A stretch of 54,714 nucleotides of DNA from a virus (taxonomy: Duplodnaviria; Caudoviricetes), in IMG/VR virus record IMGVR_UViG_3300042549_005982, positions 1-54,714 of that record; one strand, given 5' to 3'. Made by a program: the position numbers and the translations under genes. The notes beneath the pieces are model-generated. The model made no database searches. It saw nothing but the letters and a program-made list of their open reading frames with translations, and was not told where the DNA came from. Positions 761-50,099 of the stretch are shown here, one piece after another. Numbering within the stretch: position 1 is the stretch's first letter; each line of letters starts with the position of its first letter.

Positions 761-816
761 GGTTCATCCTGCAAGGTGGTGGGAGGGCGCAAGGCCCTCC
801 CAGTTGTTGGATGCGA

Positions 817-1251: not shown

Positions 1252-1306
1252 TTTTTACTCCATAGTGAATAGACCCCGTGAAGGGCCAGTATTAGGACCT
1301 TTGGTC

Positions 1307-3349: not shown

Positions 3350-3365
3350 GGGGCGTCCCTGTCTG

Positions 3366-3569: not shown

Positions 3570-3577
3570 GGGGCACC

Positions 3578-3874
3578 TTAAAAGTTTAAGTCGATGTCTT
3601 TTAGAAGTTCGTCTGCGGAAAGGATCGGGCCTTTCTGGCGAGGCGCTTTTTTGGGCTTTGGTGCTGCTTCCTGTGCGGCAAACTTTTCCCGTTGCGCTCT
3701 CAAATAGTCGATGATCCTATCCGCCTCTGCGTCCGTGATCTGCGGGGCGCGGTTCATCAATTCTTCGAGGCTTGCAGGGGACGCCTCTTCTAAAATCTTT
3801 TCCCCGATATGCTCGGCATTAGCCGTCGTCGATGAGGGCTGTGATGCTGGGGTCGAAGGCGACTGACTTTGCAT
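3578..3874 (-). CDS. Hypothetical protein with acidic C-tail (ELLKDIDLNF)
   Basis: ORF in operon orientation. Confidence 0.65.
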   Translation of the reverse strand: MQSQSPSTPASQPSSTTANAEHIGEKILEEASPASLEELMNRAPQITDAEADRIIDYLRAQREKFAAQEAAPKPKKAPRQKGPILSADELLKDIDLNF

Positions 3875-4046
3875 GGGCTTTCCTCTTTATTTGCTGCAGA
3901 TACGCATGGATGATGAGTCGAAGAGCCTTGGACCTGCCGACCGTCCGAATGCCTTCGCGGCAAAAAAGCTGGTCGATTTCTTCCAGGTCCTTGGTGAAAA
4001 TGTGGAAGTGGATTTTTGTCGTGTCCTCAGAAAGCCGCGCGGCCAT
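3819..4046 (-). CDS. Hypothetical protein, possible ribbon-helix-helix DNA binder
   Basis: Short beta strand (KIHFHIF) followed by two helices (RSKALRLIIHAYL). Confidence 0.5.
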   Translation of the reverse strand: MAARLSEDTTKIHFHIFTKDLEEIDQLFCREGIRTVGRSKALRLIIHAYLQQIKRKAHAKSVAFDPSITALIDDG

Positions 4047-4047
4047 T

Positions 4048-4344
4048 TTAGTCGTCTCCTAACAAGTCGGCTAAGTTGTAAAGGGGGCCGTCTCCCTGTG
4101 GGTTTTGTTTAAGGGCTTCGCCCTGCGGGGGCGTGGACTGCACTTGCGGTTTGTCGGTTTTGACTATCCAAATATGTGTCGGAGAAGTGGGGGATCGGGA
4201 GATTTGAAGAATGTCGAGGTCAGGGTCTTTTCGTTTTGCTGCGTAAAGGCGCTGAAGTGACATCTGGTAATTGCCCAGAAGTTCGACTTCAATTCCGTAG
4301 TCGGAATGATAAGCCTCGTAGAGCAATTCCATTTCTTTCGACAT
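4048..4344 (-). CDS. Hypothetical protein (ends NLADLLGDD)
   Basis: ORF with AAGGT RBS. Confidence 0.65.
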   Translation of the reverse strand: MSKEMELLYEAYHSDYGIEVELLGNYQMSLQRLYAAKRKDPDLDILQISRSPTSPTHIWIVKTDKPQVQSTPPQGEALKQNPQGDGPLYNLADLLGDD

Positions 4345-4364
4345 TGCACCTTTTACCTTTTGGC

Positions 4365-4393
4365 AAAAAGAAAGCGGGGGCAGACCCCCCGCT
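4365..4393 (-). terminator. Rho-independent terminator
   Basis: Minus strand AGCGGGGG-GTCTG-CCCCCGCT followed by TTCTTTTT. Confidence 0.75.
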
Positions 4394-4470
4394 CGCCAGT
4401 AGTTTCAGAGGTCCATCGTCTGGCTGACGGACAAGCGGGGAAGGGAGGAAACGAAAACCCCGCTATTCAT
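4365..4470 (-). ncRNA. Candidate three-hairpin sRNA with anti-SD (UUUCCUCCCUU) loop
   Basis: Stems 4434-4440/4458-4464, 4395-4399/4420-4424 and the terminator hairpin. Confidence 0.35.
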
Positions 4471-4484
4471 GCAACGCGCAGGTA

Positions 4485-4958
4485 TTAGAAAAGGTCCGAA
4501 AGCAGGTCGCCAGCAATCTGGCGGGAAGAATTGACACGACGCTCGGCTTCCTCGCGGATTTCCGGCTTGTGCTGGAGAACCTTCGCGACGTATTCGGAAA
4601 TCTGCTCGGCGGAATAGTCCGAAGGATTGCCGCCCTTTTTGCGGATAGCCGCGAGAACCTGCTCCTTGGCGATCTTGTTCGCCTCTTTGGCGACCGGATC
4701 AGCGGCGGCTTTCGGGGCGCGGACAGTGAACGAATAGGCGTCAGCATACGCCTGAAACTCTTTCGACAGGGCCGTGGCGTCAATCTCACCAGCTTCCGCG
4801 AGCTTCTTAATCTTGGCGATCAGCGAGGTCCGCACGTTGTCCGCGAGGACATGGTTCAGCTTGTCCGCTTCGAGCGCGGTCAGCACATGGCCTTCAGCGT
4901 AGGGCTGCGCGACGGAGACGTTGACGCCATGCGGCAGCTTGAGAGCACGATTTGACAT
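4485..4958 (-). CDS. Hypothetical helical protein (ends GDLLSDLF), probable distant paralog of 16756..17310
   Basis: Strong RBS, own promoter-like motif and terminator. Confidence 0.8.
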   Translation of the reverse strand: MSNRALKLPHGVNVSVAQPYAEGHVLTALEADKLNHVLADNVRTSLIAKIKKLAEAGEIDATALSKEFQAYADAYSFTVRAPKAAADPVAKEANKIAKEQVLAAIRKKGGNPSDYSAEQISEYVAKVLQHKPEIREEAERRVNSSRQIAGDLLSDLF

Positions 4959-5004
4959 TTACTGGTTCCTTAAATTTTAGGATTGTGGGGGATGCCCCTT
5001 TGAC

Positions 5005-5038
5005 GGTTTAAGGTGCCATAAGGTTTGACCCATTGCAA
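5005..5038 (-). promoter_or_regulatory. Putative promoter TTGCAA-N17-CACCTTAAACC
   Basis: Same ACCTTAAACC element and similar -35 spacing as 17402-17434. Confidence 0.45.
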
Positions 5039-5109
5039 CTAAAAAGTCATGCACTGGGCAAAAAACTTAGGGCCATTTCATACCGTCTAGCAAAGGGGCC
5101 TAATCCCCG

Positions 5110-5652
5110 TCACCACCCGTGCCAGCCGCACAGCGCAATCAGCCTTCCGGGCTTTTTAACTTTCCATTTCGGGGCGGCCTTCTGGGCCTCAGTTAAAACA
5201 TTGGGCTTGGGTGCAGGACGCTTCGGCTCCGCCTGTCGGCCCATTTCCTGACGAGCGAGTGCGGCCTTTGCAGCGGACGCTCTTGTTGCCTTAACTTGTG
5301 CTTCGCGTTTTTGCCGCAGTCGATTGGCTTTTTGTTCTTCGGTGAGCACAGGTTTGTTTTTGGCGCGTCTCGCCCGCGCAAGTTCAAGTGTGCGTTCGCG
5401 AAATTCTGGATCATTTGTGTAGCGTTCCTTTGTGCGAGCTGCGCGTTGTTCTTTGTGTTCGCGGTTCCAACGTCGATTGATTTCTTTTCGTCGCTCGGCG
5501 CTTGCCGCTTTCTTTTCTTCGCGAAGGCGCTCAAGTTCCGCGAGGGTTTCTGGCGGAAGGTCGAGTCCTTTTTTGCGTAAGCGGTAACGAGCGGAATGTA
5601 ATCGCGCTTTCTCGCGGTTTTCCTCTCGCCACGATTTTTTATCGAAGGCCAT
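5110..5652 (-). CDS. Arg/Lys-rich hypothetical protein
   Basis: Start MAFDKK after GGAG; WREENREK-type charged helices. Confidence 0.65.
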   Translation of the reverse strand: MAFDKKSWREENREKARLHSARYRLRKKGLDLPPETLAELERLREEKKAASAERRKEINRRWNREHKEQRAARTKERYTNDPEFRERTLELARARRAKNKPVLTEEQKANRLRQKREAQVKATRASAAKAALARQEMGRQAEPKRPAPKPNVLTEAQKAAPKWKVKKPGRLIALCGWHGW

Positions 5653-5833
5653 GGAATAACTCCTTTGGAACGCAGGCGAAACCGATCTTATAACCAAGTC
5701 CGCCTTGCTCCGACACAACTTTTCCTGCGTTGTCACACGCTTCTTTTGATACAAATTCATGAGTGGTCGTGGCAACATTCGCACCGACGAACCAGATTAT
5801 CAAAACCCATGCAGGCATGTCATTCATCTCCAT
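5639..5833 (-). CDS. Small hypothetical protein with N-terminal hydrophobic segment
   Basis: AWVLIIWFVG; F.S.EAC..A...CVP pattern. Confidence 0.55.
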   Translation of the reverse strand: MEMNDMPAWVLIIWFVGANVATTTHEFVSKEACDNAGKVVSEQGGLGYKIGFACVPKELFHGLR

Positions 5834-6233
5834 CAGGTTCGAGTGATGCGTCGTGGGAAAGGGCTTGATAGGCTCGTTTCACGCGAACGCGGTTGAGGAT
5901 GTTCGCGACGCTGCCCGGTTCGACGCCGACAGCTTCTGCAACTTGCTTTCGAGTCTTGCCGTCGTTCACAAGTTTTTCCACGAGCAATTCGCGATCAGTA
6001 ATAGGTAAAGCCTGGACTTCTTTCACCCAATGCGCGCTGTGTGATGGGTTCTCGATGTGCGGGACTGCTTCAGGAGATTTGTATTTATGGTAGAAATCTG
6101 TTCCTTCACCCTCGAGCCATTTCAAGCGTGGGATGGAAAGAAGCATGTGGCGCTGTGTGCTTCCCGCAGCGACACCTTCCGATTTGAGCCCCGTGACGAC
6201 CGGGACATATCTGCTAACCTTCTCGATCTTCAT
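5820..6233 (-). CDS. HTH DNA-binding protein (LuxR/sigma region 4-like C-terminus)
   Basis: ITDRELLVEKLVNDGKTRKQVAEAVGVEPGSVANILNR. Confidence 0.65.
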   Translation of the reverse strand: MKIEKVSRYVPVVTGLKSEGVAAGSTQRHMLLSIPRLKWLEGEGTDFYHKYKSPEAVPHIENPSHSAHWVKEVQALPITDRELLVEKLVNDGKTRKQVAEAVGVEPGSVANILNRVRVKRAYQALSHDASLEPDGDE

Positions 6234-6447
6234 CTTTCAAGGCTTTCGTTGCGTAAAGGACTGGAAGGGGTTCGATGAGAATAAGGTTGGGTTGGAGAGG
6301 AAGTTTGTCACCTTCCCAATAGGTGGATAAATCTGCGAAAGGTTTGAGTGCGGATTTAAGTTCCGCGATGCAGACGTCGCGCTTTGCTATGGTCGCGTTC
6401 GCTAATTTTTGAAGTTCCATGATAATTTCGGTTTGGTCGTCACTCAT
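6214..6447 (-). CDS. Hypothetical mosaic micro-protein (IAELKSALKPFAD)
   Basis: ATGA-coupled to upstream gene. Confidence 0.6.
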   Translation of the reverse strand: MSDDQTEIIMELQKLANATIAKRDVCIAELKSALKPFADLSTYWEGDKLPLQPNLILIEPLPVLYATKALKDEDREG

Positions 6448-6635
6448 TCCTTATCTCCCCTATAAGCGGCGCGGGCAGAACCCATCCACGGTTTAGAAAT
6501 TGCCTTTTTCAGTTCTTCGTTCTCGGCTTCAAGTTCCGCGATGCGGGCGCGTAGCGCCAGCGTTTCATCAGCGCGGATTTCATGAACCGCTTGGTGTTCG
6601 GCCATCAAAGGCGGCCCGTTCCCAACCCCACTCAT
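6444..6635 (-). CDS. Hypothetical mosaic micro-protein (RARIAELEA...RAAYRGDKE)
   Basis: ATGA-coupled start MSGVG. Confidence 0.6.
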   Translation of the reverse strand: MSGVGNGPPLMAEHQAVHEIRADETLALRARIAELEAENEELKKAISKPWMGSARAAYRGDKE

Positions 6636-6835
6636 TCTTTCTCCCCCAGATAAGCGGCGCTCCACTGATTCAAACAATCCATCAAATGCTCTAGGTCAAT
6701 ATTAGTGTGCTCATTCCCGCTGCAATTATAAGCGCGGATTACAATTCTGCCTTTATAAAGCCAAACCTCTACAGGTCCGCCTTCGCCAAGTTCATTGACG
6801 GAATATAATTGAGAAATCTTTGTGTCAGTTGTCAT
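6632..6835 (-). CDS. Hypothetical micro-protein (ends AAYLGEKE)
   Basis: ATGA-coupled. Confidence 0.6.
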   Translation of the reverse strand: MTTDTKISQLYSVNELGEGGPVEVWLYKGRIVIRAYNCSGNEHTNIDLEHLMDCLNQWSAAYLGEKE

Positions 6836-7059
6836 AGTTTATTCTCTCCCAGATAAGCGGCGCGGGCGGCGCGGAGGTCGTCTATATTAATCTGCCACCG
6901 CCATGTTTCTTTCTCATCCCATGCGTCAGAAAATGGCTTTAGCGCCTCCATCAATTTCTCAATCACGTCGGCTGCGTCGCAAAATTCGTCGCGCTTACTG
7001 ATGATTGCGAAAGCCCGTAGCTTCTCACACAAGTCGGCATACCGATTATAGTCCATCAT
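6832..7059 (-). CDS. Hypothetical micro-protein (ALKPFSD...DLRAARAAYLGENKL)
   Basis: ORF with shared motifs. Confidence 0.6.
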   Translation of the reverse strand: MMDYNRYADLCEKLRAFAIISKRDEFCDAADVIEKLMEALKPFSDAWDEKETWRWQINIDDLRAARAAYLGENKL

Positions 7060-7122
7060 GACGTATCCATACTGCGATTGTAATACCTAACAAGCAAAGC
7101 CACATAGCGACGAGATTATGGG

Positions 7123-7398
7123 TTACGTCTCTGATAGCCTCAACAATGAGCCTAGCCCTTCGTCGTGCGCTTCGATGTAGTTGATGCGCGCTTCAAGTTC
7201 CGCGATGCGGGCGCGGGCTGTCTTGTATTCGCTGTGCATCATGTCAGCTTCTTTACGCAAGTCAGCGATACGCTTCTCTTGGCTACGGATAAGGCTCATC
7301 GCCTGATGACACGCGCCAGCCTCGCCCGTGTAGCCTTTGGCGTTGAGCCAATCTTCGACGTTCACAAGGTCGGGGTAGGTGTTGGTGTGGTCAGTCAT
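7123..7398 (-). CDS. Hypothetical coiled-coil protein
   Basis: Start MTDHT coupled to upstream stop. Confidence 0.6.
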   Translation of the reverse strand: MTDHTNTYPDLVNVEDWLNAKGYTGEAGACHQAMSLIRSQEKRIADLRKEADMMHSEYKTARARIAELEARINYIEAHDEGLGSLLRLSET

Positions 7399-7637
7399 TC
7401 TTCGCCTACAAGGTTGGAGGAAGAGCCTGCGTAAGAGCCTTCGGAGTTGTAGTAAGTTGTGTATCCGCCGAGAGAGTTGGCGCTCCCAGCATACTGCCCT
7501 TGTGGCCCGTAAAATGTCGAGTAGCCTGCGATGGTGTTGGCCGATCCGGCTAACTGGCCTTGAGGGCCGTAGAAAGTCGTGTAGCCGTCGCACAGGCCAA
7601 TGCACAAACACAGGATCGAGATTGCATTGCGCGTCAT
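7395..7637 (-). CDS. Putative exported small protein with three ~20-aa repeats (GYTTFYGPQGQxAGSAN)
   Basis: Hydrophobic/Cys N-terminus followed by tandem repeats. Confidence 0.6.
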   Translation of the reverse strand: MTRNAISILCLCIGLCDGYTTFYGPQGQLAGSANTIAGYSTFYGPQGQYAGSANSLGGYTTYYNSEGSYAGSSSNLVGEE

Positions 7638-7638
7638 G

Positions 7639-7998
7639 TCAGAAGTCTCCGAGTAGATCGTTAAGGTCGAGGGTAGGCGTTGCGCTAGGTGTTGCCCCTT
7701 GGGGCAACGGCACCCATCCAAATTCGCGTTCCGCCACGCCTTCGGGGTCTGCCAACCAGCGTGTCCAGAACGCTGCAAAACAATCCGCACGGATTGTTAG
7801 GACCTTGCGGGTCGAACGGTTGGGGCCGGATGAGAAGAACCCGGAGATTTCGACTTCCGTGCCATCGCCTATCGGCGAGCAGTAAAGGCCGGGGATGATC
7901 GAGAGTCCACCGGGGTTCATGTCGGTGCGGAACGCGGGGAGCCCGGAGATGCGTGGGCGCTCGGGCGCAAGGAAATGTAGAGGAGCAGTGTTTGTCAT
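7639..7998 (-). CDS. Hypothetical protein (ends DLNDLLGDF)
   Basis: TGATG overlap with helicase stop. Confidence 0.65.
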   Translation of the reverse strand: MTNTAPLHFLAPERPRISGLPAFRTDMNPGGLSIIPGLYCSPIGDGTEVEISGFFSSGPNRSTRKVLTIRADCFAAFWTRWLADPEGVAEREFGWVPLPQGATPSATPTLDLNDLLGDF

Positions 7999-9494
7999 CA
8001 CGAAAAATCCTTTAGGTTTGCCAGAATTAAAGTGTGCTTGGTGCGCGTTTCGAGCACGTATTGTAAGTTGTGCTCCTGTTTGATCTCGTCGTCTTTCTTG
8101 GCCCATTTGGAAGGGATGCGCCACGGATCGAGATGCACAACGGTATCCCATTCGAGGCCCTTTGCTTTGTGGCCTGTCGCGAGTGTGACGAGGCCGGAGT
8201 CCTTCGCGAACAAATTGTCAAGTTCAGACACAAGGGCGCGGACTGTGCTGGGCGATCGGTTTTCGATCACCGACACAATACACTCATAACGATCTGTCAC
8301 GGAGTCGATCTTGCTCGCGTCGTCGTTCGCTTCCGCTTTTGATCGTTCGGTTTCAAACCAACTTTCGAGCTTTTGTTTGAAAACGTCGATGGTCGTTGAT
8401 TGATCTGCGGAGAGTTTTTTGCAAAGCGCCGAAAGACCACGGCCAATGTCACGACCGAGCATGTTCACGCCCATGCCTTGGCGCAGCAATTTGAAGGCCA
8501 TGCTTAAAAGCGGCGCGTTGTTTCGACAGAGGATCGCAACGTCGCCTTGCGAAAGGTCTTCGATCTTGCTCCAATCCCACGGTTCGCCTCGCATAAATGT
8601 GTTGACGGAACCTTTCGGGTTGGAAGGCGCTGCACGGTAGTCCGGGGCGTGAATGTGTTGGCGCTCGACCACAGACTGCGGACAGCGGAACGTGGTGTTG
8701 AGCGGGAGTTCGATCCATTCGGATTTGAGGGTTTTGAGGTTGGTCATGCTGTTATGGTCTGCGCCGCGAAAAGCGTAGATGGCTTGGCGGGGATCGCCCA
8801 CAACGATCAATTTACCAGCAGCCACTTTGCGGAGCATTTGGTGATTGAGGGGTGAAAGGTCCTGGGCCTCGTCAACCAGCACAATGTTGAAACGCGGGAA
8901 CGCTCCCGAAAACACGACTGGGAGATAAATTTGGTCGTCGTAAGAAATGCAGCCGTTCATTCCTTCTTCGATGGACGAGATGAGAACCCTGCGCGCAAGT
9001 TTGCGCTCGTCAGCGGTGAGGTTTAGATCAAGTTCGTAGTCAAGTTTTTCCCATGTTTCGGGGGTGTCGGGAACGAGCGATTTGGCATGTTGGAATTGCG
9101 ACGGGACGAGTCCGCGCTGCATCGCCATGACCACAAGTGTGCGGATCGCTGACCATTCCCCTTTGCTTTCGGGAAAAGGTTTGAGCGCGTCAGTTGTGAG
9201 GCGTCCGATTTTGTTCGCGTCGATCAGCATTTTCTTTTTGTTGATCGTAAAAGACCATGCGCGATGGCCGAGGCCGTTCATGGTCATTACGCTGAAGTTT
9301 TTGGGAAAGCGTTTTTCTAACTCTTCCTTAATTTTCTTGTTGAAGGCGAGGGCAAGGGCTGGCTCGGGGGGCAAAGCCTTGGCGAGCATGGTGAGGGTTG
9401 TGGTCTTGCCGGTGCCTGCGAGCGCGTTTACCATGAGCGACTGAGGCTGCGTGGCCGCGTGAATGATGGCGGCTTGTTCGGGAGTTGGTTTCAT
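7998..9494 (-). CDS. UvrD/Rep-like SF1 DNA helicase
   Basis: ALAGTGKTT, VDEAQD, VGDPRQAIYAFRGA, TFRCP, HKAKGLEW, YVLETR. Confidence 0.92.
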   Translation of the reverse strand: MKPTPEQAAIIHAATQPQSLMVNALAGTGKTTTLTMLAKALPPEPALALAFNKKIKEELEKRFPKNFSVMTMNGLGHRAWSFTINKKKMLIDANKIGRLTTDALKPFPESKGEWSAIRTLVVMAMQRGLVPSQFQHAKSLVPDTPETWEKLDYELDLNLTADERKLARRVLISSIEEGMNGCISYDDQIYLPVVFSGAFPRFNIVLVDEAQDLSPLNHQMLRKVAAGKLIVVGDPRQAIYAFRGADHNSMTNLKTLKSEWIELPLNTTFRCPQSVVERQHIHAPDYRAAPSNPKGSVNTFMRGEPWDWSKIEDLSQGDVAILCRNNAPLLSMAFKLLRQGMGVNMLGRDIGRGLSALCKKLSADQSTTIDVFKQKLESWFETERSKAEANDDASKIDSVTDRYECIVSVIENRSPSTVRALVSELDNLFAKDSGLVTLATGHKAKGLEWDTVVHLDPWRIPSKWAKKDDEIKQEHNLQYVLETRTKHTLILANLKDFS

Positions 9495-9514
9495 AACGAC
9501 ATATCCTTGCAGAT

Positions 9515-9757
9515 TTAAGCGATACGATGAATAAGCAGGCCGAAGCCTTTTGTGTTGTGGGTAGATCGGACTGTTATTCTAAATCCAGGTTGATGTTTTT
9601 CGCGAAAGCGGCGAGCCGCGTTGTGGACTTGTGTGGAGCAGTTCGGCCTCATGTCACGAGGGCAAGGCATGAAAAACGCATCCCCAATCTCCATGCGAAG
9701 AAAGGGGTATTGCGTGAGCGGCTCAGGCTTTTTGCCTTTCAAGATTTTGAATTGCAT
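9515..9757 (-). CDS. Small putative DNA-binding protein (YPFxxMEIGDxFF type)
   Basis: Recurring phage motif; basic. Confidence 0.55.
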   Translation of the reverse strand: MQFKILKGKKPEPLTQYPFLRMEIGDAFFMPCPRDMRPNCSTQVHNAARRFREKHQPGFRITVRSTHNTKGFGLLIHRIA

Positions 9758-9767
9758 GGTGCGCTCG

Positions 9768-10202
9768 TCAAAGGTTGAAGATAACCGCAGGCTGGCCCGA
9801 GCCTGTAAACGACAGTTTGCACGGGAAACCACTCCATAGAAAACCTTCTCCTGAAACCGCAGCATCTTCGTTGTGGCCTTCGATTATCATGGCGACTCGT
9901 TCTTGGTGGATCGCAGCGTGTTCTTTTGCGAGATAGCCAAGCTGCCAAAAGCGTTGGGAAAGAAGGTCTTCGAGGTTTCCACCGTTCGCGGGGAGCGTGG
10001 CCTCGAGTTCCTCTTTTGCGTCGGGCGAGAGGTGTGAGGCATCGAACCAGACCGCGACGGCGTTGGGGTCGTAAGGGTTAGACGGCTCGGGGCGAAGTTC
10101 GAGCGTGTAACCGGCGGGAAGAGATTGAATGATCGTCTTCGCCGGGGGGCGGAAATGTGCGCCGACGAGAGGGACGACGAAGGTATTGGAGTTGGAAAGC
10201 AT
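9768..10202 (-). CDS. HIRAN domain protein
   Basis: LVGAHFR...LELRPEPSNPYDPNAVAVW...LGYL. Confidence 0.8.
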   Translation of the reverse strand: MLSNSNTFVVPLVGAHFRPPAKTIIQSLPAGYTLELRPEPSNPYDPNAVAVWFDASHLSPDAKEELEATLPANGGNLEDLLSQRFWQLGYLAKEHAAIHQERVAMIIEGHNEDAAVSGEGFLWSGFPCKLSFTGSGQPAVIFNL

Positions 10203-10238
10203 GTGGCACCTTTCGGGTTTGCGGTTTGGGGTTTGCGG

Positions 10239-10463: not shown

Positions 10464-10782
10464 ATTTCGCTCTTTCGGCTGGAGTCATGTTTGTGTATTC
10501 CGCAGCAATGTTGAAACCTTTTTGCATAAGGTCAAACTCTTTGTTCATGGCTTCGCGCCATACGTCGAGAAGTTTTGCGGGAGGCACTTCGCCACATTCC
10601 AAACGTGCGGAGCAATAAAGCATGAGGAAGGCTGCAGACATGGATGATGATGCGACGACTGCGAGCATGGAAGGCTGTCGTCCGAATGTGTCGCAGATGC
10701 GGTTGATGGACTCGATTGTTCGGTCGTATGCGAGCTTTTGCACGTCTCGTTTTATGTGCTTTGGGATGTCGGGGTCAGTCAT
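10453..10782 (-). CDS. Hypothetical protein
   Basis: ORF in operon. Confidence 0.55.
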   Translation of the reverse strand: MTDPDIPKHIKRDVQKLAYDRTIESINRICDTFGRQPSMLAVVASSSMSAAFLMLYCSARLECGEVPPAKLLDVWREAMNKEFDLMQKGFNIAAEYTNMTPAERAKYDA

Positions 10783-10990
10783 GTTTGCACTCTGTGAGTT
10801 TTTGTTCGATGAATTGAATGATCTCGTCGATTTCGACGGGGGTGAAGCGGGACGCTTTGCCTTTGGCGTGTAGGTTTAGTTTGCGAGTCCAGTGGGCGAG
10901 GAGTTGGCGTAGGATCGGTGCTATGTGTTGCGGGGGATAGTGAGCGCACAAGGCGCTCACTTCTTTCAGAATGTCATCGACGCGACTCAC
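10775..10990 (-). CDS. Hypothetical protein
   Basis: GTGA overlap with upstream gene. Confidence 0.5.
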   Translation of the reverse strand: MSRVDDILKEVSALCAHYPPQHIAPILRQLLAHWTRKLNLHAKGKASRFTPVEIDEIIQFIEQKLTECKHD

Positions 10991-11262
10991 GCGACTTCCT
11001 CGGGGGCAGAGAGCAACGGGAGGTTGAGGGTTTTGGCGACGGTCTTGGAGTTCATCAGGGTGTCGAATTTTTCGAAAGCGAGGCGCAAGGCTTCGTCCCC
11101 GTCAGCAGCGTTGCAGCGCACTTTGATTTCCGTCCCGTCGTTGTCAACGGTGATGCTGCATCCCCAGCGCTCAGGCGTCTCGGTGTAGCGATAGTTGTTG
11201 CGAAGCAGCGCGACTTCAGCGTTGAAAGCGTTAAGTTTGGCGAAGATCTGGGAAAGGGTCAT
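10987..11262 (-). CDS. Hypothetical protein
   Basis: AGGAG RBS before MTLSQ. Confidence 0.6.
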   Translation of the reverse strand: MTLSQIFAKLNAFNAEVALLRNNYRYTETPERWGCSITVDNDGTEIKVRCNAADGDEALRLAFEKFDTLMNSKTVAKTLNLPLLSAPEEVA

Positions 11263-11340
11263 TTTGATTGCTCCTGCGTGATAGGTGTTAGGTGTTAGGC
11301 ACATTGTGGATTGAGTAGCAGATGGGGTTAGCCCGTAGGG

Positions 11341-11712
11341 CTAAAATTCAAAGTTCGGGTCGTTGAACAGTTCCTCCATGTCTTTCAGTTTTTCGGTGAG
11401 AGGTTTGCGTGCAAAGCGTTCCTTCTCGGCGCGTTCGCGGGCGCGTTCGGCTTTTGCTTCGGCGTTGGGGTCACGAGCCCAGGAATTGACGACATGCTGG
11501 ATCGGCATGGTCGGGCCTGCTATGCGGTGCGGCTGGGTTGCCCCGGCCATCTCGCGTTCACGCAGGACTCGCATGAGCGCTGCCATGCCTCCGGGTGTGG
11601 CGGGGAAGGAAAGCTCTTGCGTGTAGCCTTTTGTGGCGCGGAGTTGGAGGTAAATGAAATCGCCTTCTGAGTAGATGGCGGTGGCAGCGTGGAACGGGGC
11701 GGTTCGTGACAT
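11341..11712 (-). CDS. Hypothetical protein (ends EELFNDPNFEF)
   Basis: GGAG RBS before MSRTA. Confidence 0.65.
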   Translation of the reverse strand: MSRTAPFHAATAIYSEGDFIYLQLRATKGYTQELSFPATPGGMAALMRVLREREMAGATQPHRIAGPTMPIQHVVNSWARDPNAEAKAERARERAEKERFARKPLTEKLKDMEELFNDPNFEF

Positions 11713-11809
11713 GGCAGGCTCCGAGGTAACGTAGGGTAACAGGGGACAACTCACATATTATAGTCGCACAACGGGCGGGAAAATGCAACAAAAAAGTCCA
11801 CGGCTGCGA

Positions 11810-11992
11810 TCATTCGTCGTAAATAATGGCCCGATACAATCCTTTCGGACAAATCGCTTTCCGAGTCTCGTCGTCCCAGAGGCAAAAATACGAAAATATC
11901 AACGAGCCATAAATCAGCGTGTAAGCCGCGATTGAAAAGAAAAGCCACGCCATGAGAAAAGCTGAAAGCGTGAACAATGCAGCGAATAGCAT
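11810..11992 (-). CDS. Small membrane protein
   Basis: Long hydrophobic N-terminus. Confidence 0.45.
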   Translation of the reverse strand: MLFAALFTLSAFLMAWLFFSIAAYTLIYGSLIFSYFCLWDDETRKAICPKGLYRAIIYDE

Positions 11993-11993
11993 G

Positions 11994-12284
11994 TCAATAA
12001 TCCTTTTCTTCGAGCGGACGGAGGTGGAGTTCCACTTTGCCGGGAGTGAGGCAAATGATCTGCGCCCAGAAGTTTTGGGGTTTGTATGCGCGGATCAAGT
12101 CGAACGCCTCGTCCATGTCCGCGCAGTTGAATGTCAGGGTTTGGCGCTTGCCCTCTGGGTTTAGAGGTGCGGAGATGCAGTCATCGGTCACGGTAATAAT
12201 CCTCATCTGGATAGGAGTCCTCATCTTCGCCCCACTCCCCGATGTAATCAAGGATCGCGTCGTCAACTGCGCGATGAGTTGCAA
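11994..12284 (-). CDS. Hypothetical protein (true start probably further downstream)
   Basis: ORF in operon. Confidence 0.4.
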   Translation of the reverse strand: MQLIAQLTTRSLITSGSGAKMRTPIQMRIITVTDDCISAPLNPEGKRQTLTFNCADMDEAFDLIRAYKPQNFWAQIICLTPGKVELHLRPLEEKDY

Positions 12285-12504
12285 GGAGTTCGAGCAGCGC
12301 GCCAGTTGCTTTGAAGAGCGGGGCGTCCGGTTTGTCTGGGTCGTCGAGTTTGAGATGGATCGAGTTGACTTCCCATTCCGGGTCGTCTCCCTCGTAGCAA
12401 TCCTCCGGCGGGCCGTAGAGTTGGGGTTTGGTGCCGGGATGGGTTAAAGTCCAGTCGATGTCGAGGATGAAATCGTGGCCCATGAAATAAAGTCCGGTCT
12501 GCAT
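12181..12504 (-). CDS. Acidic hypothetical protein
   Basis: YGPPEDCYEGDDPEWEV motif; very acidic C-terminus. Confidence 0.6.
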   Translation of the reverse strand: MQTGLYFMGHDFILDIDWTLTHPGTKPQLYGPPEDCYEGDDPEWEVNSIHLKLDDPDKPDAPLFKATGALLELLATHRAVDDAILDYIGEWGEDEDSYPDEDYYRDR

Positions 12505-12508
12505 GATT

Positions 12509-12742
12509 TTAGCCTTTCGAAGGAGCAAACATGATGCTGCTGGAGTATCCATCGCAGAGGGGGAACGATCGCTCTTTGATGCCGGAAGCGAGCAGTCCTT
12601 TGCGTAGGTCATCGAAAACGCCGCGAGGTGAGAGGGATGGATCGCCTCCGATGTTGTTGCATACGAAGGCCAGCACTTCAGCTTCGTATTCGGAGATAGT
12701 TATGGTGACTTCGATGGCTGTAGCTTGAGAAGTGATTTTCAT
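12509..12742 (-). CDS. Hypothetical protein
   Basis: GGAG RBS. Confidence 0.55.
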   Translation of the reverse strand: MKITSQATAIEVTITISEYEAEVLAFVCNNIGGDPSLSPRGVFDDLRKGLLASGIKERSFPLCDGYSSSIMFAPSKG

Positions 12743-12802
12743 GTTGGGACTCCGTGTTGAGGGGTAGAACCGCAGGTGCGTGGAGGTGAAAGGGGTTGCC
12801 CG

Positions 12803-13219
12803 CTAGGGCAACGGCCAGACGTAGGGAAGGTCGGGGCTTTCGATCCATCCAAACTGGCGATAGTGTTCGGGTAATTTGCGAAGCAAATTGGAGCGGTGGG
12901 ATGCGTGGAAGTCGGCGTTGCCGAGCCATTTCGGGGGTGAAACGGCTTCGCCGTTTGGCATGTGTGCGGCGATTTTGGCAGCGCATGTGTCGTTGAACCC
13001 GCGTTTTTTCCATTCATCACATATCGCCAGACCATACAAAACGAGGTGGGCGATGTGGCCGCGCCACATTTTGACTGCGGGATGGTTTTGCCAACCATAA
13101 GAGGGATTGGTGAGCGCGTTGAGGATTTGCAGCGTTTCGACGCGCTGCTTTCCAAGTCTGCGATTGTCGAGAGATCGGGCGGACATGGGGAAGTCGCTGT
13201 AAGGTAAGAAGGTTTGCAT
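12803..13219 (-). CDS. Pyrimidine-dimer DNA glycosylase / endonuclease V-like (MSMEG_6728-type)
   Basis: MQTFLPY...LDNRRLGKQRVETLQI...NHPAVKMWRG...HRSNLLRK...YVWP. Confidence 0.85.
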   Translation of the reverse strand: MQTFLPYSDFPMSARSLDNRRLGKQRVETLQILNALTNPSYGWQNHPAVKMWRGHIAHLVLYGLAICDEWKKRGFNDTCAAKIAAHMPNGEAVSPPKWLGNADFHASHRSNLLRKLPEHYRQFGWIESPDLPYVWPLP

Positions 13220-13221
13220 GG

Positions 13222-13416
13222 TCAGCCTCCTGAATAAGAGTTGCGTAAAAGCCATTGGCGTTCGGCCTCGTTGTCGAGACATTCTTGCAGATCGGAGATG
13301 AATTGTTCGAGATCCAGCCTCTCGTCTTTTGTGATTTTGAAATTGGGGTTTTGCAGGTTGGCGACGAGAACGCGAATGGCTGTTTGCGCGCCGTCTGGGT
13401 AAAGTTCTGCGATCAT
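13222..13416 (-). CDS. Hypothetical protein
   Basis: GGAGGA RBS before MIAEL. Confidence 0.55.
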   Translation of the reverse strand: MIAELYPDGAQTAIRVLVANLQNPNFKITKDERLDLEQFISDLQECLDNEAERQWLLRNSYSGG

Positions 13417-13586
13417 TCTGAGTCCTCCATGATGTAGTCGATGAATGTGGAGCGGCGGAAAGTGCTGGATGCAGCCGCACAAACGTCTGCGATGTTGTTG
13501 ACGAGCAGTTTGAACGCGAGAGGGTTCATATGCTGGCGGGATTCACGGAGCGCCTTTGCGAGTGCTATGAAATGTTTCTTGCTCAT
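13413..13586 (-). CDS. Hypothetical protein, 57 aa (MSKKHFIALAKAL...)
   Basis: Manual translation; fills the gap with ATGA coupling. Confidence 0.6.
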   Translation of the reverse strand: MSKKHFIALAKALRESRQHMNPLAFKLLVNNIADVCAAASSTFRRSTFIDYIMEDSE

Positions 13587-13589
13587 GGT

Positions 13590-13877
13590 TCACCAAGTGT
13601 AGTTCTGGGTTTTGAGAATGTCTCTAAGTTCCTGCTTGATGCGCCTTGCGTGTTCTCCGCGCCATGTGGCAGCGTTTGCCAGGAAGTAGGCCACAACGCT
13701 GACGCCAGAATCCAGGCCATACATTTCTCCGATCTGGTTGAGCGAGCGCATGGCGTATATGTAAGGGAAAGCCGCAAAATGCGGCTTGGGCCAGTTTTGG
13801 CGTATGTCCGCAGCGATGATGTAGAGGGGGCGGTGCCTTTCGGCTGGAGCGCCTTCGGCGGGAGATGTCTGAGTCAT
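13590..13877 (-). CDS. Conserved-type phage hypothetical protein (RPLYIIAADIRQNW...FLANAATWRGE)
   Basis: Motif recalled from other phages' early genes. Confidence 0.65.
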   Translation of the reverse strand: MTQTSPAEGAPAERHRPLYIIAADIRQNWPKPHFAAFPYIYAMRSLNQIGEMYGLDSGVSVVAYFLANAATWRGEHARRIKQELRDILKTQNYTW

Positions 13878-13878
13878 G

Positions 13879-14169
13879 TCATTCGTCCGAGGTGATGGGC
13901 AGGGCGGACTGCATGGTGGCGATCCAGATGGTGAGGTCGTCGATTGCCATTGCAGCCTGGGTTCGTTTGTATTTGGTGTTTGTGATCTCGCCCGCAGCGC
14001 GCAGCATGTTGGTGATGCCCATGCCGCGAGTTGGGATGACCTGCCCGTTGGTTTTGATGTAGAGCTGCAGGGCGGAGCGCAGTGAGCGGGCGCGGAAGTA
14101 TGCAACAGCGTCGGGGCCGGAATAGCTGACTGCGCCAGATTTGCCGATGTGAATTGATGACTCTGACAT
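13879..14169 (-). CDS. Hypothetical protein
   Basis: ORF in operon. Confidence 0.6.
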   Translation of the reverse strand: MSESSIHIGKSGAVSYSGPDAVAYFRARSLRSALQLYIKTNGQVIPTRGMGITNMLRAAGEITNTKYKRTQAAMAIDDLTIWIATMQSALPITSDE

Positions 14170-14180
14170 GGGACTGCCTG

Positions 14181-14396
14181 TTAGTTGGAAATGGTCTGGA
14201 TGACGAAGCGGCGGTTGTCTCGCACAAGCCACTTGGTGCCGCGCCAGACGTTGATGGCTGACGCGACTGGCCAGAGTGGTGTTTGGAAGCGAAAACGCTT
14301 TCCAGCGCGTGTGCGGCCAGTGACGAGGTAGAGGTCGCCGGGGGCGGGAGTCCAGACAACTGCGCCGTTGGGGGAGCGGGTGAGAGGGGATTGCAT
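14181..14396 (-). CDS. Hypothetical basic protein
   Basis: GGAG RBS. Confidence 0.55.
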   Translation of the reverse strand: MQSPLTRSPNGAVVWTPAPGDLYLVTGRTRAGKRFRFQTPLWPVASAINVWRGTKWLVRDNRRFVIQTISN

Positions 14397-14429
14397 GGTT
14401 TTGGCTCCGTTGGTGAAAGGGGACGATCG

Positions 14430-14666
14430 TTAGAGCGTCGGGGTGATGAAAATGCAGATGGGGTTGTTGACTAAATCCAGACGTAAAAGATCGCCCCAGT
14501 CTGTTGTGCGGTGACGGCAGGGAGAAAGGCCCAGAGCCTTTTTGGCTCGGCGGATTAGGGTTTGGCTTGTGGCGTCAGCGGGCGCGTCGATTTCGACTCG
14601 ATGCACCCAGCAGTAGTTGGCTTCGCCTCCGAAAGTATCGGTCATTTCGACTGAGTAACGGCACAT
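14430..14666 (-). CDS. Phage hypothetical protein (TDTFGGEANYCWV motif)
   Basis: GGAG RBS before MCRYS; recurring phage motif. Confidence 0.6.
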   Translation of the reverse strand: MCRYSVEMTDTFGGEANYCWVHRVEIDAPADATSQTLIRRAKKALGLSPCRHRTTDWGDLLRLDLVNNPICIFITPTL

Positions 14667-14703
14667 GGTAGGGCTCCAGGTTTGGGGGTGCAGAGGTGCA
14701 GAA

Positions 14704-14934
14704 TTAGAGTGTGGGGAAAGCGCCGGAAAGCTGCGTCCAGAAGCAGGACAGCATAACGTCGTGTGAATAGCCTGCGTCCTCGAACAGGCGGATCTCCTTG
14801 TCGAGATCGAGTGCATCGTCACCCTGGATGAAAAGGTCGGAGCGAGAGATGCGATTGTAAAGAGTGTAAGCTGATCCATTGCCGTGGGAGTAGAGGTGGA
14901 AATGGTCTGTGGTGATGGAGAGGCTGGTTTGCAT
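14704..14934 (-). CDS. Hypothetical protein
   Basis: AAGGAG RBS. Confidence 0.6.
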   Translation of the reverse strand: MQTSLSITTDHFHLYSHGNGSAYTLYNRISRSDLFIQGDDALDLDKEIRLFEDAGYSHDVMLSCFWTQLSGAFPTL

Positions 14935-14954
14935 GGGAAGGCTCCTTGCAGATG

Positions 14955-15272
14955 TTAGAAAAGGTCTGAGAGGTCGTCAGCGGTGATGACTGCGACAGCT
15001 TTGCCACGCTTGGTGGTTACGCGCTGTGCAGCGTCTTGGACGGCTGGATGATCAGCGCCCCAGATGTTGCGGAGGTTCGCGAGGTAACGCTTGTGCGCCT
15101 CGGCAAAGCCAGAAAAGTGGTCGTTGTAAGAGGCAGGCCAGAGGTTTTCGGGGAAGTCTTGGAAGAGCTTGCGGGTAGCCGCAGGCTGCGCGTCGTAATA
15201 GGCAAAGAGCTGGGCTTTGTCTTTGCGGATTGTCTGCTGGTAGCGGTTGCGGGAGTTGTTTGTGGCTGGCAT
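14955..15272 (-). CDS. Hypothetical protein (ends ADDLSDLF)
   Basis: AGGA RBS. Confidence 0.65.
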   Translation of the reverse strand: MPATNNSRNRYQQTIRKDKAQLFAYYDAQPAATRKLFQDFPENLWPASYNDHFSGFAEAHKRYLANLRNIWGADHPAVQDAAQRVTTKRGKAVAVITADDLSDLF

Positions 15273-15377
15273 TGCAAGAGTCCTGACTGCGCTGGTGCAG
15301 TGTGCGGGGTTGCGTCTGGATGACGAGTGAAAAACAAATCACCCGTCATCCTTTTGTTGCATATAATGGGCCTAAGG

Positions 15378-15530
15378 TCAATCCAAAAAACGTCGAGCGG
15401 TTGAAGGATCGGCGGCGATTAAAAGCTCCAAAAAGTCAGCGTATCGGTGCTGGTTTGCTTCTCGCATCAGTTTAATAGCGAGTCTCAAAACGGCGCGGAG
15501 ATGGATGATTGTATCGTCTTTGGCTGACAT
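15378..15530 (-). CDS. Hypothetical protein, 50 aa (MSAKDDTIIHL...)
   Basis: Manual translation; TAATG overlap. Confidence 0.5.
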   Translation of the reverse strand: MSAKDDTIIHLRAVLRLAIKLMREANQHRYADFLELLIAADPSTARRFLD

Positions 15531-16213
15531 TAGAAAACTCCTTCGTCGTCAGTTGGAAGGCCGAGGTGAATTTTGTGGTCGAGTGAAAGGGGCTCGTCGT
15601 CGTTGTAGAGGTCTGGAAACGGCGCGGGTTGGCCGAGAGCAGTCCAGGCTTGGTTGATTGCGTGTTTTTGGTCAGCGAGTTCAATGTTCATGTGTTGGGA
15701 AAGCTGGCGATCGGAGAGGGTTTTGTTGTAGCGAGCTGCTGCGCCGTAGTGGGTTGGGGTTGCAGGTATTGGGTCTTTGGGGACTGCGAGAACAGTGGAT
15801 TTGTCGAAGTATTGTGAAAAGCCTTCTGGCGTTTTTGTGCCGATTGCGGCAGGCGCGGTTTTGCCGGGGGTGAGATATTCGGCTGGAGGAGCTTCGCCGG
15901 GAAGGAGTTTGTAGGGTGTTGGAGTGGCGTGGCGTTTTGCGCGATTGCGGAGCATTTGACGAGTATTGCGCTGCGCGTTGAGTTTGAAATGAGCGTTTTC
16001 GTTCGCGAGAATTTCGAGCGCCTGCGGATTGATGGTGATGAGGTTGGTGATGGCCTGGATGGTTTGGATGGTGGAGAGGAGTTCATCGGGAGTTGGTTGA
16101 GGTGGGAGGGCGCGGATTGCGTCGGAGATGTTGCGGTGGGTGGAGAGAAGTAGGTCTTTGAAATCGCTGGATATTTTGAGGAGTGCGAGCATTCGGGTTT
16201 GTGATATTGCCAT
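15530..16213 (-). CDS. Hypothetical protein adjacent to origin-like locus (ends PTDDEGVF)
   Basis: AAGGAG RBS, 227 aa. Confidence 0.7.
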   Translation of the reverse strand: MAISQTRMLALLKISSDFKDLLLSTHRNISDAIRALPPQPTPDELLSTIQTIQAITNLITINPQALEILANENAHFKLNAQRNTRQMLRNRAKRHATPTPYKLLPGEAPPAEYLTPGKTAPAAIGTKTPEGFSQYFDKSTVLAVPKDPIPATPTHYGAAARYNKTLSDRQLSQHMNIELADQKHAINQAWTALGQPAPFPDLYNDDEPLSLDHKIHLGLPTDDEGVF

Positions 16214-16274
16214 GGAAAGGGCTCCTTTGGCGATGTGTTAGGGTGAACAATGCACCCGTTGTATCACGCGGATG

Positions 16275-16546
16275 AGTCCGTGCATATAAATCAAGTGGGT
16301 GTTGCTCGCGTTTTTGGGTTATGGGTGGGTTTAAGGTTGTGGGTGGGATAGCTGGGGGCCTAGTTGACATTCGATTTTTAAAAAAAAATATATAATTAAG
16401 GAGTTAAAAGGGCTCTAACCTTTTAAAATATATATTTAGAGAAAAGGTTAGGCCCACAATATACTGGCTATAGAGTGGGTTTAAGGTTAAGGCCACCATT
16501 GCCGTCCCAGAGGGCGTAAAGGGTAGGTGATTTATATGCACGGACT
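16275..16546. repeat. Perfect 19-bp inverted repeat (AGTCCGTGCATATAAATCA; 16275-16293 / 16528-16546) enclosing 14-bp direct repeats and an AT-rich core
   Basis: Direct comparison; GTGGGTTTAAGGTT at 16325 and 16475; CTAACCTTTT/AAAAGGTTAG IR at 16415/16442. Confidence 0.9.
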
Positions 16547-16592
16547 GATTGCCGGGAAACAATGCCGGTAACATCGCCGCTGCCGCTCTGCC

Positions 16593-16666
16593 ACCATTTC
16601 CCTACCATTTCTCCTGCCACCATTTACCATTTCTCCAACCATTTGCTGACCATTTTCCTACCATTT
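16593..16666. repeat. Seven ACCATTT heptamers, mostly ~11-bp spaced (iteron-like)
   Basis: Copies at 16593, 16604, 16619, 16626, 16638, 16649, 16660. Confidence 0.9.
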
Positions 16667-16717
16667 GAAATCAGCGAAAAAATTTAGCATCTGGTCGTGA
16701 TGGCAAAACGCAGAGCC

Positions 16718-16750
16718 AAAAAAGCCCCGCCAGAATGACCCGGCGGGGCT
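16718..16750 (-). terminator. Rho-independent terminator
   Basis: AGCCCCGCC/GGCGGGGCT stem followed by a T tract on minus. Confidence 0.8.
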
Positions 16751-16755
16751 GTTGA

Positions 16756-17310
16756 TTAGAATATATCTGCGAAATCGTCGGACTGTTTCGCTGCTTTGCG
16801 CTTGCGGTCGGAAAATTCCTTTTCGACTGCGGCAGCGAATTTTGCGTTTTGCAAGGCATTGGCAAGGAAAGTCTCAAACGCCTCCTTTTCCTCCGGCTTG
16901 CTGCGCTTTGGCAGCGCTTTGCCTTTTGCTTTGGCGACATTCTCCAAAAGCTCGATAGCAATAGCGCGGCGCATTTTATCATCGTCTGACATGCGCGGGG
17001 ACGAGGCGCGACTCTTGCGTGCGACTCCCGAAACAATGCTTTCAAACATTTCTCGTTGAATCGCCGCGCAAATTTTCGCGGCTGTTTCCTCGTCCCGACC
17101 GCCGCCAGTTATGGCGAGGCGGTTACATTCGGCGGCAATATCGTCATCTGACCAAGGGTTAGCCCCATTGCCCATAATACCTGCCTTCACCCCCGCAATC
17201 GAGTTCTTGATTGCCGTCGAAAATCCCAACTGCATAAGATGTGCGATGGAATTTTCAGGAAGGTTAGCGCTGTTGACGTTAAAACCGGCGAACGAAAGAT
17301 GATACGACAT
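16756..17310 (-). CDS. Hypothetical helical protein, first leftward gene (ends SDDFADIF)
   Basis: GGAG RBS; monocistronic with terminator. Confidence 0.8.
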   Translation of the reverse strand: MSYHLSFAGFNVNSANLPENSIAHLMQLGFSTAIKNSIAGVKAGIMGNGANPWSDDDIAAECNRLAITGGGRDEETAAKICAAIQREMFESIVSGVARKSRASSPRMSDDDKMRRAIAIELLENVAKAKGKALPKRSKPEEKEAFETFLANALQNAKFAAAVEKEFSDRKRKAAKQSDDFADIF

Positions 17311-50064: not shown

Positions 50065-50099
50065 CCCAGGCTCCCTGCATTTCTAAAAGCAAATTGCTA

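Follow-up and report, generated by a model that had tools for sequence, protein, structure and literature searches.

A putative docking peptide at the C-termini of unrelated early proteins in an uncultured phage with a P22-type coat

The early region of the tailed-phage record IMGVR_UViG_3300042549_005982 (Duplodnaviria; Caudoviricetes) encodes a series of small proteins whose C-termini carry a short acidic and hydrophobic peptide, and it is these tails that we consider here. The window, that is, the whole stretch of DNA analysed, is the complete viral record, a linear sequence of 54,714 bases rated 98% complete, in which early genes occupy the minus strand in two blocks (1-17,950 and 48,874-54,714) and late genes lie on the plus strand between the two. 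A first-pass annotation had listed eight such C-termini from this region, together with the untailed end, NIKSVKGE, of an SSB (a protein that binds single-stranded DNA) encoded at 817..1251; translation of the minus-strand open reading frames (ORFs) reproduces the eight C-termini, and likewise the end of the 817..1251 protein, exactly. Codon-usage scores favour seven of the eight originally reported frames, and we add to them a ninth tailed family, p3819. Eight of the nine tails in the window are acidic and seven end in Phe, while no Pfam or PHROG family was found for any of the nine proteins. Relatives were sought by fetching 42 loci via p4485 and 68 via the 817..1251 protein, and five long relatives were retrieved in full.

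All nine genes lie on the minus strand. The 98-aa protein p3578 (3578..3874) consists of a low-complexity N-terminus, a short conserved helix region and a Pro/Lys linker, followed by the tail ...KGPILSADELLKDIDLNF, with ELLKDIDLNF at its C-terminus. This tail persists in all but one of 43 related contigs (42/43; the one without it has a truncated ORF), and it is spelled ...SVDELLSGLD, ...SADEILSSLDI or ...ELLSDILGD in relatives. The neighbouring p3819 (3819..4046, 75 aa) has a basic body that looks, by eye, ribbon-helix-helix-like, and a weaker tail, ...FDPSITALIDDG; its codon score is ambiguous, and its orthologues in 5 related genomes (66-76% identical) end in ...SITDLIGE, ...SITELLDS or ...TIADIIA. 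The end of p3819, tail included, overlaps the start of p3578 by 56 nucleotides (3819-3874) in a different frame, and conservation of the p3578 N-terminus is possibly due to this overlap. In p4048 (4048..4344, 98 aa) a domain of about 62 aa is followed by a linker of variable length and by the tail ...GDGPLYNLADLLGDD (C-terminus NLADLLGDD), which is present in 43/43 contigs and always reads ...LLGD[DEN] or ...LFGD[DE]; in a 25-sequence alignment the invariant tail columns are L88, L91, D93, G96 and D97, and none of the 25 relatives ends in F. The helical protein p4485 (4485..4958, 157 aa) ends in ...RQIAGDLLSDLF (C-terminus GDLLSDLF), a tail that is again kept in 43/43 related contigs. Each of its 74 cluster representatives has [DE]-hydrophobic-hydrophobic within the last 10 residues, against a background of 1.7% in internal 10-residue windows, and 47 of the 74 end in AA (...DLFDEAA or ...DLLDEAA). 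The window copy stops at ...DLF, the DEAA extension being found only in relatives. An AlphaFold2 model of p4485 (mean predicted local distance difference test, pLDDT, 84.7) shows an elongated helical fold in which the tail closes helix 133-156; a Foldseek search of the PDB with this model gave no match at E <= 0.001, and body look-alikes in the ESM Atlas were only unnamed viral clusters, with scores <= 0.85.

The remaining five genes are spread over the rest of the block. The tail of p7639 (7639..7998, about 119 aa), ...TLDLNDLLGDF, hangs on a Pro/Thr/Ala linker. Its most likely start is the ATG at 7998 (or the GTG at 8001) rather than 8151, and the stop codon of the UvrD-type helicase gene (TGA, 8000-7998) shares one base with that ATG (GTGATG, 7996-8001), an overlap that suggests translational coupling. 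The frame scores poorly for codon usage, and we accept it because of this overlap (TGATG), of orthologues in five related genomes, and of a conserved body, variable linker and conserved tail; the tail is kept in 23/23 contigs covering the gene (...LDFDDLLEGLE, ...LDLDELLRDL, ...ADDLLEDLL). The p11341 protein (11341..11712, about 123 aa) has a basic helical C-terminal region and the tail ...MEELFNDPNFEF, closing with EELFNDPNFEF, and its relatives retain the terminal F in 15/15 contigs covering the gene (...LFDDPDFDF, ...LDALLDLTF, ...ELEQLFENF). For p14955 (14955..15272, 105 aa, basic body, tail ...ITADDLSDLF) the coding frame is indeed 14955-15272, which has a codon score of +0.159, against -0.073 for the overlapping 15017-15349, and which also has tailed orthologues; these end in ...DADDLLSDF, ...DADDLLANF, ...LNDLDDFDF or ...MLTIDDLDL, three of the four with F. 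The weakest member is p15530 (15530..16213, 227 aa, tail ...GLPTDDEGVF), whose orthologues (...PTPPSSSLF, ...TAMGDAELF, ...PVLSDDELF) keep a terminal [LV]F in 4/4 cases while the acidic part varies. Finally, p16756 (16756..17310, 184 aa) ends in ...KQSDDFADIF; 104 of its 114 cluster representatives have [DE]-hydrophobic-hydrophobic within the last 10 residues (background 12.7% in internal windows), with ends such as ...DGLDDIF, ...GLDDLID, ...FDLDDII and ...GLDDLFA.

The tails are concentrated in the early genes. A tail was defined by three features: a terminal F, two or more D/E among the final 8 residues, and absence of K/R from the final 6. Such a tail is present in 7/50 early-strand ORFs, as compared with 0/39 late ORFs and 2/398 of the other ORFs of at least 40 aa, the gene sets being taken from a greedy longest-ORF call that includes some doubtful short ORFs. 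Shuffling the residues of the early proteins 2000 times gave 0.19 passes on average and never more than 3. The claim of the first-pass annotation that late proteins lack such a tail therefore holds. A position-specific scoring matrix (PSSM) trained on the tails, when run over the whole window, placed its five best sites (14.7-21 bits) at C-termini, the best internal site reaching 9.7. The bodies to which the tails are attached are unrelated, as had been supposed: all 36 hhalign pairs among the nine families fall below 16% probability, and the best pairs align just the C-terminal 14-21 residues (e.g. p3578 79-94 with p7639 105-120). One exception had been made for p4485 and p16756, yet this pair is not borne out either, and paralogy is rejected on a BLASTP E of 28 and an hhalign probability of 0.3%.

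Tails are also kept in orthologues across 43 related contigs, where the linkers vary in length and sequence. The ends share a conserved core close to the C-terminus, [DE]-[DE]-[LI]-hydrophobic, to which x-[DG]-hydrophobic is often added. The terminal Phe, by which the tails had initially been recognised, is not a conserved feature, given that only 14/74 p4485 relatives and 55/114 p16756 relatives end in F, and that in the clade typified by relative G001 the tails of p3578 (...ELLSGLD) and p7639 (...DLLEGLE) end in D or E. A second flavour of tail, acid plus Phe, may exist, as p11341 (15/15) and p15530 (4/4) retain the Phe. The p4048 alignment is near-invariant over the 62-residue domain and the final 13 residues but differs in sequence and length in between, with insertions of up to ~13 residues; in p7639 and p3578, similarly, linker columns are poorly conserved and tail columns highly conserved. 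Flexible linkers, another element of the first description, are real in p3578, p4048 and p7639, where they are rich in Pro, Ala, Lys and Gln, but not in p4485, whose tail ends a predicted long helix.

Tail codons differ among families, so that no tail is a recent DNA-level copy of another, and copying of tail DNA from gene to gene was rejected on this ground. When relatives G001 and G005 are compared over the final 11 codons of four families, 44 codons in all, 9 changes are synonymous and 2 are Asp/Glu exchanges, which indicates that purifying selection acts on the tail peptide and not on the DNA. In the G001/G005 clade a common spelling, ...LLxGL[DE], occurs in p3578 (...LLSGLD) and p7639 (...LLEGLE) with different codons, a single case that would fit co-adaptation of two families to one reader. 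The motif exists, it is enriched in early proteins, it is independent of protein family, and it is under purifying selection.

The family of p4048 offers a view of how a tail may be acquired. A profile search with p4048 recovered 232 remote relatives at E <= 0.001, and of the best 150 of these, which were examined, most are 60-90 residues long and stop right after the domain. Five of the 150 pass the tail pattern, and by eye about a dozen possess a linker and an end of the form [ST]-L-x-[DE]-[IL]-L, as in ...LFSLGDILKEK, ...GPSLSEILKEE, ...DLTLQDILDFKA, ...ELTLADILGSM and ...TITLESILGETQPA. Of the tailed remote homologues P0081, P0115, P0146 and P0179, two are encoded on contigs of 55-59 kb. 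The 62-aa body, with its hallmark ...SP.NP..LWIVK, belongs to a large unannotated family of ~65-75 aa proteins that are mostly tail-less, and the remote homologues have no family in Pfam (34 scanned) or PHROGs (23 scanned). Since the body is widespread without a tail, the tail is a module that was joined to a small domain already in existence. A p4048 relative is also encoded on a 2.8-kb contig (2818 bases) in a metagenome-assembled genome of a Burkholderiaceae bacterium, the sole match in the species-genome collection and a weak hint as to the host.

The protein that the first-pass annotation had called the phage SSB (817..1251, minus strand, 144 aa) lacks an acidic tail. Its AlphaFold2 model is an OB fold (pLDDT 91.9), for which the closest structure by Foldseek is PrgE of plasmid pCF10 (8s4s_B, E 6.7e-5, template modelling scores 0.59/0.64), followed at lower ranks by other OB-fold SSBs and single-stranded DNA (ssDNA) binders, RPA and PriB. 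By sequence, the protein has no Pfam match at E <= 0.01, DUF669 (PF05037) included, and the family profile found nothing meaningful among PDB sequences, while weak DUF669 matches (best E 0.0038) occur in 9 of 19 family members. We regard it as a PrgE/DUF669-like, SSB-like OB-fold protein with putative ssDNA binding. It is 78-99% identical across the clade, and its gene adjoins that of a Sak4-like protein (1307-2110; AAA_24, E 2e-12), much as a report on DUF669 SSBs pairs such a gene with that of an AAA recombinase (PMC13687109). That report describes an acidic, flexible C-terminal region in its DUF669 protein, with prophage copies ending in DDDIPF, so the absence of a tail from the 817..1251 protein is a real departure from many members of the family. 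PrgE oligomerises via an N-terminal tail (PMC11137577), and oligomerisation by this means is predicted for a DUF669 protein too (PMC13687109). The idea that the early tails imitate the N-terminus of the SSB-like protein (MAVNFKDLL...) was dropped, this segment lying outside the 40 best PSSM sites of the window proteome.

A link between the tail-less SSB and the tails, which the first-pass annotation had drawn, is weakened by distant phages. In 14 loci within L095-L110 (37-47% identity) a tail-less OB-fold protein and Sak4 are accompanied by few tail-like ends, several of them on the opposite strand, and the two features are consequently not tightly coupled. One of these distant phages, L097, encodes a 96-aa helical non-SSB protein (1003-1293, plus strand) with a Pro/Glu-rich linker that ends in ...PPLPDDEIPF, the canonical spelling of the SSB tip. 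The Sak4-like protein of the window itself ends in ...GLADYF[AKR][AD][VI]R; this end is kept in relatives down to 44% identity, and is therefore a feature of the Sak4 family and not one of the tails. A complex prediction for the OB-fold protein, Sak4 and the linker and tail of p4048 (62-98) returned a score of 0.00, which speaks neither for nor against binding.

The interpretation that we favour, with little better than even confidence, is that the tails constitute a portable short linear docking motif, borne in this phage lineage by at least nine early proteins that are unrelated to one another. The motif is an acidic peptide containing Leu, Ile or Phe, with the core [DE]-[DE]-[LI]-hydrophobic and often a continuation x-[DG]-hydrophobic-(F), situated within ~10 residues of the C-terminus and, in several of the proteins, borne on a flexible linker of variable length. 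Under this hypothesis the tail would probably fold as one or two turns of amphipathic helix, and would tether accessory proteins to a shared surface on one or a few partners, where each body would then act. By analogy with phages T4 and T7, the partner would most likely belong to the replication, recombination or transcription machinery: candidates from the phage are PolA, Sak4, the OB-fold SSB-like protein and the DUF3987 primase-helicase, and candidates from the host are the beta clamp, RNA polymerase, sigma region 4 and an SSB-partner enzyme. Binding, its partner and the existence of a single reader are what we infer, and a rough and unnormalised ranking of readers puts phage replication or recombination proteins first, at rather less than an even chance, and a host machine next, as a sizeable minority possibility, with several readers or none making up the rest. 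What stands of the addressing tag originally proposed is a short linear motif, selected and portable, that unrelated early proteins carry and late ones lack; the single hub is putative.

Several points weigh against the docking interpretation. The tail criteria were chosen after the data had been seen, and the PSSM was trained on the same tails, making it circular for the training sites. The evidence from orthologues comes from one phage lineage, so that orthologue counts are not independent events, and five single-protein scans for an independent lineage with tailed p4048 homologues returned nothing usable; locus L117, considered as such a lineage, was rejected as a spurious match inside a 654-aa ORF, without tails. 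Pfam revealed no clamp, receiver domain or other obvious reader among the 81 proteins of the window. Moreover, the motif is loose, and the weak membership of p15530 and p3819 means that there could be two classes of tail, or several readers. Acidic, hydrophobic C-termini could also serve other roles.

Docking epitopes of this general kind have been described in well-studied phages. The clamp epitope of T4, carried at the C-termini of gp43, gp33 and gp55 and read by gp45, is likewise a short hydrophobic and acidic peptide on unrelated proteins, and it too follows a divergent linker of variable length, a property shared here by p4048, p7639 and p3578 but not by p4485; both the linker and the interchangeability of the epitope have been described (PMC2988020). 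Some of its ends may be compared with ours: gp43 ends in ...SLDFLFG and gp55 in ...SLDFLYEAND, the latter having an acidic extension after the motif much like that of ...DLLSDLFDEAA, and the p4048 end S/N-L-A-D-L-L-G-D-D resembles S-L-D-F-L-[FY] of T4 at positions 1, 2, 5 and 6. The T4 carriers, however, are a polymerase and sigma-like factors, whereas here the peptide, in a different spelling, is carried by nine small proteins without known function, and no gp45-like clamp or loader was found among the 41 + 40 window proteins (Pfam, E <= 0.01), a search that a divergent clamp could escape. In T7 the acidic, Phe-ended tails of gp2.5 (...EDGDF) and gp4 (...NDTDF) contact the family A DNA polymerase, and they may be compared with ...LLGDF of p7639 and, among orthologues of p14955, ...LLSDF. 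The gp2.5 tail makes its contact at a basic patch of that enzyme (PMC12339929), and a family A polymerase (PF00476) is encoded here as in T7. Yet T7 bears its tails on the SSB and the helicase, while the OB-fold and DUF3987 proteins of the window are without them, and the T7 tails are long acidic runs, unlike the defined Leu-Leu core with a losable Phe seen here. The bacterial SSB tip (D-D-D-[IL]-P-F) is similarly an acidic and hydrophobic peptide on a flexible linker, with many partners, but the polarity is reversed in this phage, where the peptide is found on many proteins but is missing from the SSB-like one; none of the tail carriers belongs to an OB-fold or SSB family (Pfam, PHROG; p4485 model).

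The nearest verified spellings come from bacterial chemotaxis. CheZ of Escherichia coli ends in ...QVDDLLDSLGF after a flexible linker and FliM starts with MGDSILSQAEIDALL, to be compared with ...AGDLLSDLF, ...SVDELLSGLD and ...GPILSADELLKD here. The C-terminus of CheZ and the N-terminus of FliM both dock on CheY. We know of no reason for nine early phage proteins to bind a chemotaxis regulator, and a Pfam search of the 81 window proteins found no receiver domain; the likeness is one of peptide type and is not evidence of the same partner. A more speculative likeness is to the flap-tip helix of E. coli RpoB (...TPEEKLLRAIFGEK / ...EEKLLRAIFGEK), which has acids and then hydrophobic residues at i, i+1, i+4 and i+5, as in D-L-L-S-D-L-F, and which binds sigma region 4, but the flap tip is internal and has a Lys between the acids and Leu-Leu. 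In the literature on multi-protein acidic-tail systems in phages we found the T4, T7 and SSB cases, and neither this motif nor these families are described there. A C-terminal docking epitope within one phage is thus a known kind of system, and what is unusual is the number of carriers and their anonymity.

Several alternative hypotheses may account for the tails. In one, which takes up the SSB-tail mimicry suggested in the first-pass annotation, they imitate the SSB tip and would occupy the pockets of host repair or replication enzymes, or of Sak4, thereby recruiting or blocking them. The acidity and frequent terminal Phe of the window tails (8/9 and 7/9, respectively), and retention of this Phe throughout the p11341 and p15530 orthologues, are consistent with such mimicry, as is the ...PPLPDDEIPF end of the non-SSB protein in L097. 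Furthermore, two reports record that Sak4 of HK620 depends on NDYPPF, the six C-terminal residues of its cognate SSB (PMC5928155), and that many DUF669 SSBs are acidic and flexible at the C-terminus, some with DDDIPF (PMC13687109), a feature missing from the 817..1251 protein. Against this stand the counts of terminal F in p4485, p16756 and p4048 relatives (14/74, 55/114 and 0/25), the D or E ends of p3578 and p7639 in the G001-type clade, and a penultimate Pro in 0/9 window tails. In SSB-tip complexes the main anchor is the C-terminal Phe together with its carboxylate. In p4485 relatives the motif is followed by DEAA, leaving no free Phe carboxylate, and ends such as ...LLGDD and ...LLSGLD likewise do without it; a terminal Phe that most families can dispense with argues against strict mimicry, which we now consider unlikely. 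It is similarly improbable, in our estimation, that the tails have no common reader at all, and instead autoinhibit in cis as nucleic-acid mimics (in the manner of SSB, T7 gp2.5 and HMGB1) or represent convergent acidic caps. Six bodies (p3819, p4485, p11341, p14955, p15530 and p16756) are indeed net basic, with isoelectric points (pI) of 8.8-9.9, and the tail of p4485 prolongs a predicted helix instead of sitting on a linker; but p3578, p4048 and p7639, which have the best-conserved tails, have acidic bodies (pI 5.2-5.8), conservation falls on two hydrophobic positions and their spacing rather than on charge alone, and linkers of variable length suggest reach towards something in trans.

Two further proposals give the tails a specific host reader, and we regard each of them as very unlikely. 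Were the tails degrons, or adaptor-docking sites for a host AAA+ protease that render early proteins short-lived, their strictly C-terminal position would be expected, and the Ala-Ala end (...DEAA) of 47/74 p4485 relatives does recall ssrA-type ClpX signals. Most tails, however, end in D, E or F, no C-terminal signal of the basic or non-polar class is present, and ends of the ...GDD type resemble the classical non-degradable 'DD' variant of ssrA. Alternatively, the tails could be divergent clamp motifs through which early proteins would reach the sliding clamp of the host or obstruct it, a clamp reader having to be that of the host because no phage clamp is detectable by Pfam among the window proteins. 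The architecture is that of the T4 clamp epitope, and ...SDLF, with which p4485 and p14955 close, is similar to the last part of the clamp consensus QL[SD]LF, but none of the tails has Gln at position 1 with an x-L-x-L-F pattern, and ...LLGDD, ...LLSGLD and ...DDLID fit neither that consensus nor QLxLxL. Additionally, the phage polymerase is of family A, a type not known to rely on beta clamps. Chance or a compositional artefact might be invoked for a motif that is short and degenerate and whose criteria were set post hoc, yet we find this scarcely credible, as it is contradicted by the shuffles and the non-gene ORF controls, by conservation in orthologues and by the excess of synonymous changes.

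Returning to the docking motif, its strongest form would be a phage-wide address code, in which one reader surface recognises one C-terminal peptide on at least nine unrelated early accessory proteins, in uncultured phages of a lineage that combines a P22-type coat with an early module of PolA, Sak4 and DUF669. We hold this stronger form to be doubtful. One variant would be an 'inverted SSB interactome', with the acidic tip on the partners and the pocket on the tail-less OB-fold SSB or on Sak4, and in another the reader would be a central host machine. If the code were real, the peptide would mark out an entire set of effectors of host takeover, along with the target that they share. More generally, a shared docking peptide is a functional handle on early phage genes, which are mostly orphans, and the partner of one peptide could name the common target of nine proteins, sorting 'dark matter' genes into one pathway. 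This would extend the principle known from T4 and T7, in which a few replisome proteins bear a C-terminal epitope, to many more accessory proteins, and the p4048 family shows a motif of ~10 residues grafted onto pre-existing small domains.

In the genome as a whole, early Pfam matches comprise ParB_N, the AAA_24 match of the Sak4-like protein, a PD-(D/E)XK nuclease, the UvrD-type helicase, HIRAN, a pyrimidine-dimer glycosylase, DUF3987, a family A DNA polymerase, a UDG-plus-exonuclease protein, an Acb2/Tad1-hairpin protein and an N6/N4 methylase; late matches comprise a P22-type portal and coat, a terminase and two beta-helix tailspike-like proteins. No tRNA genes were found in the 54,714-base window. 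The coat protein shares 56% identity with its counterpart in a temperate P22-like Pseudomonas phage, the early genes of which are unrelated, and coat matches are confined to P22-like phages with unrelated early regions, such as PAE2. A megablast search of cultured phages with the early region (3000-17500) gave two 0.5-kb matches only, and a tblastn search of the same phages with the OB-fold protein gave none.

The second early block opens with the DUF3987 primase-helicase (48874-50064), which ends in ...REMHGAG, without an acidic tail, followed by the family A polymerase (50100-51617, minus strand; PF00476, E 4.6e-34), a 505-aa protein consisting of the polymerase domain alone. A separate upstream gene (51916-52971, minus strand) fuses a UDG-superfamily domain (E 9.8e-25) with a weak 3'-5' exonuclease match (E 9.6e-4), and the editing function of the polymerase may have been split onto it. 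Adjacent to this, an 80-aa protein (52973-53215, minus strand) matches the Acb2/Tad1 hairpin domain (PF24729, E 3.6e-7) and is a candidate sponge for cyclic-nucleotide defence signals. Among the late genes, two large pectate-lyase-like beta-helix proteins (25903-28431 and 37242-39542, plus strand), the second of which has a K1-lyase domain at its C-terminus (E 7.9e-19), probably represent two distinct tailspike depolymerases. Lastly, a 143-aa early protein (12181-12612, minus strand) has an acidic end of a different, Tyr-rich kind, ...EDEDSYPDEDYYRDR, and is 97% and 91% identical to its counterparts in two relatives and 37-39% identical in two others.

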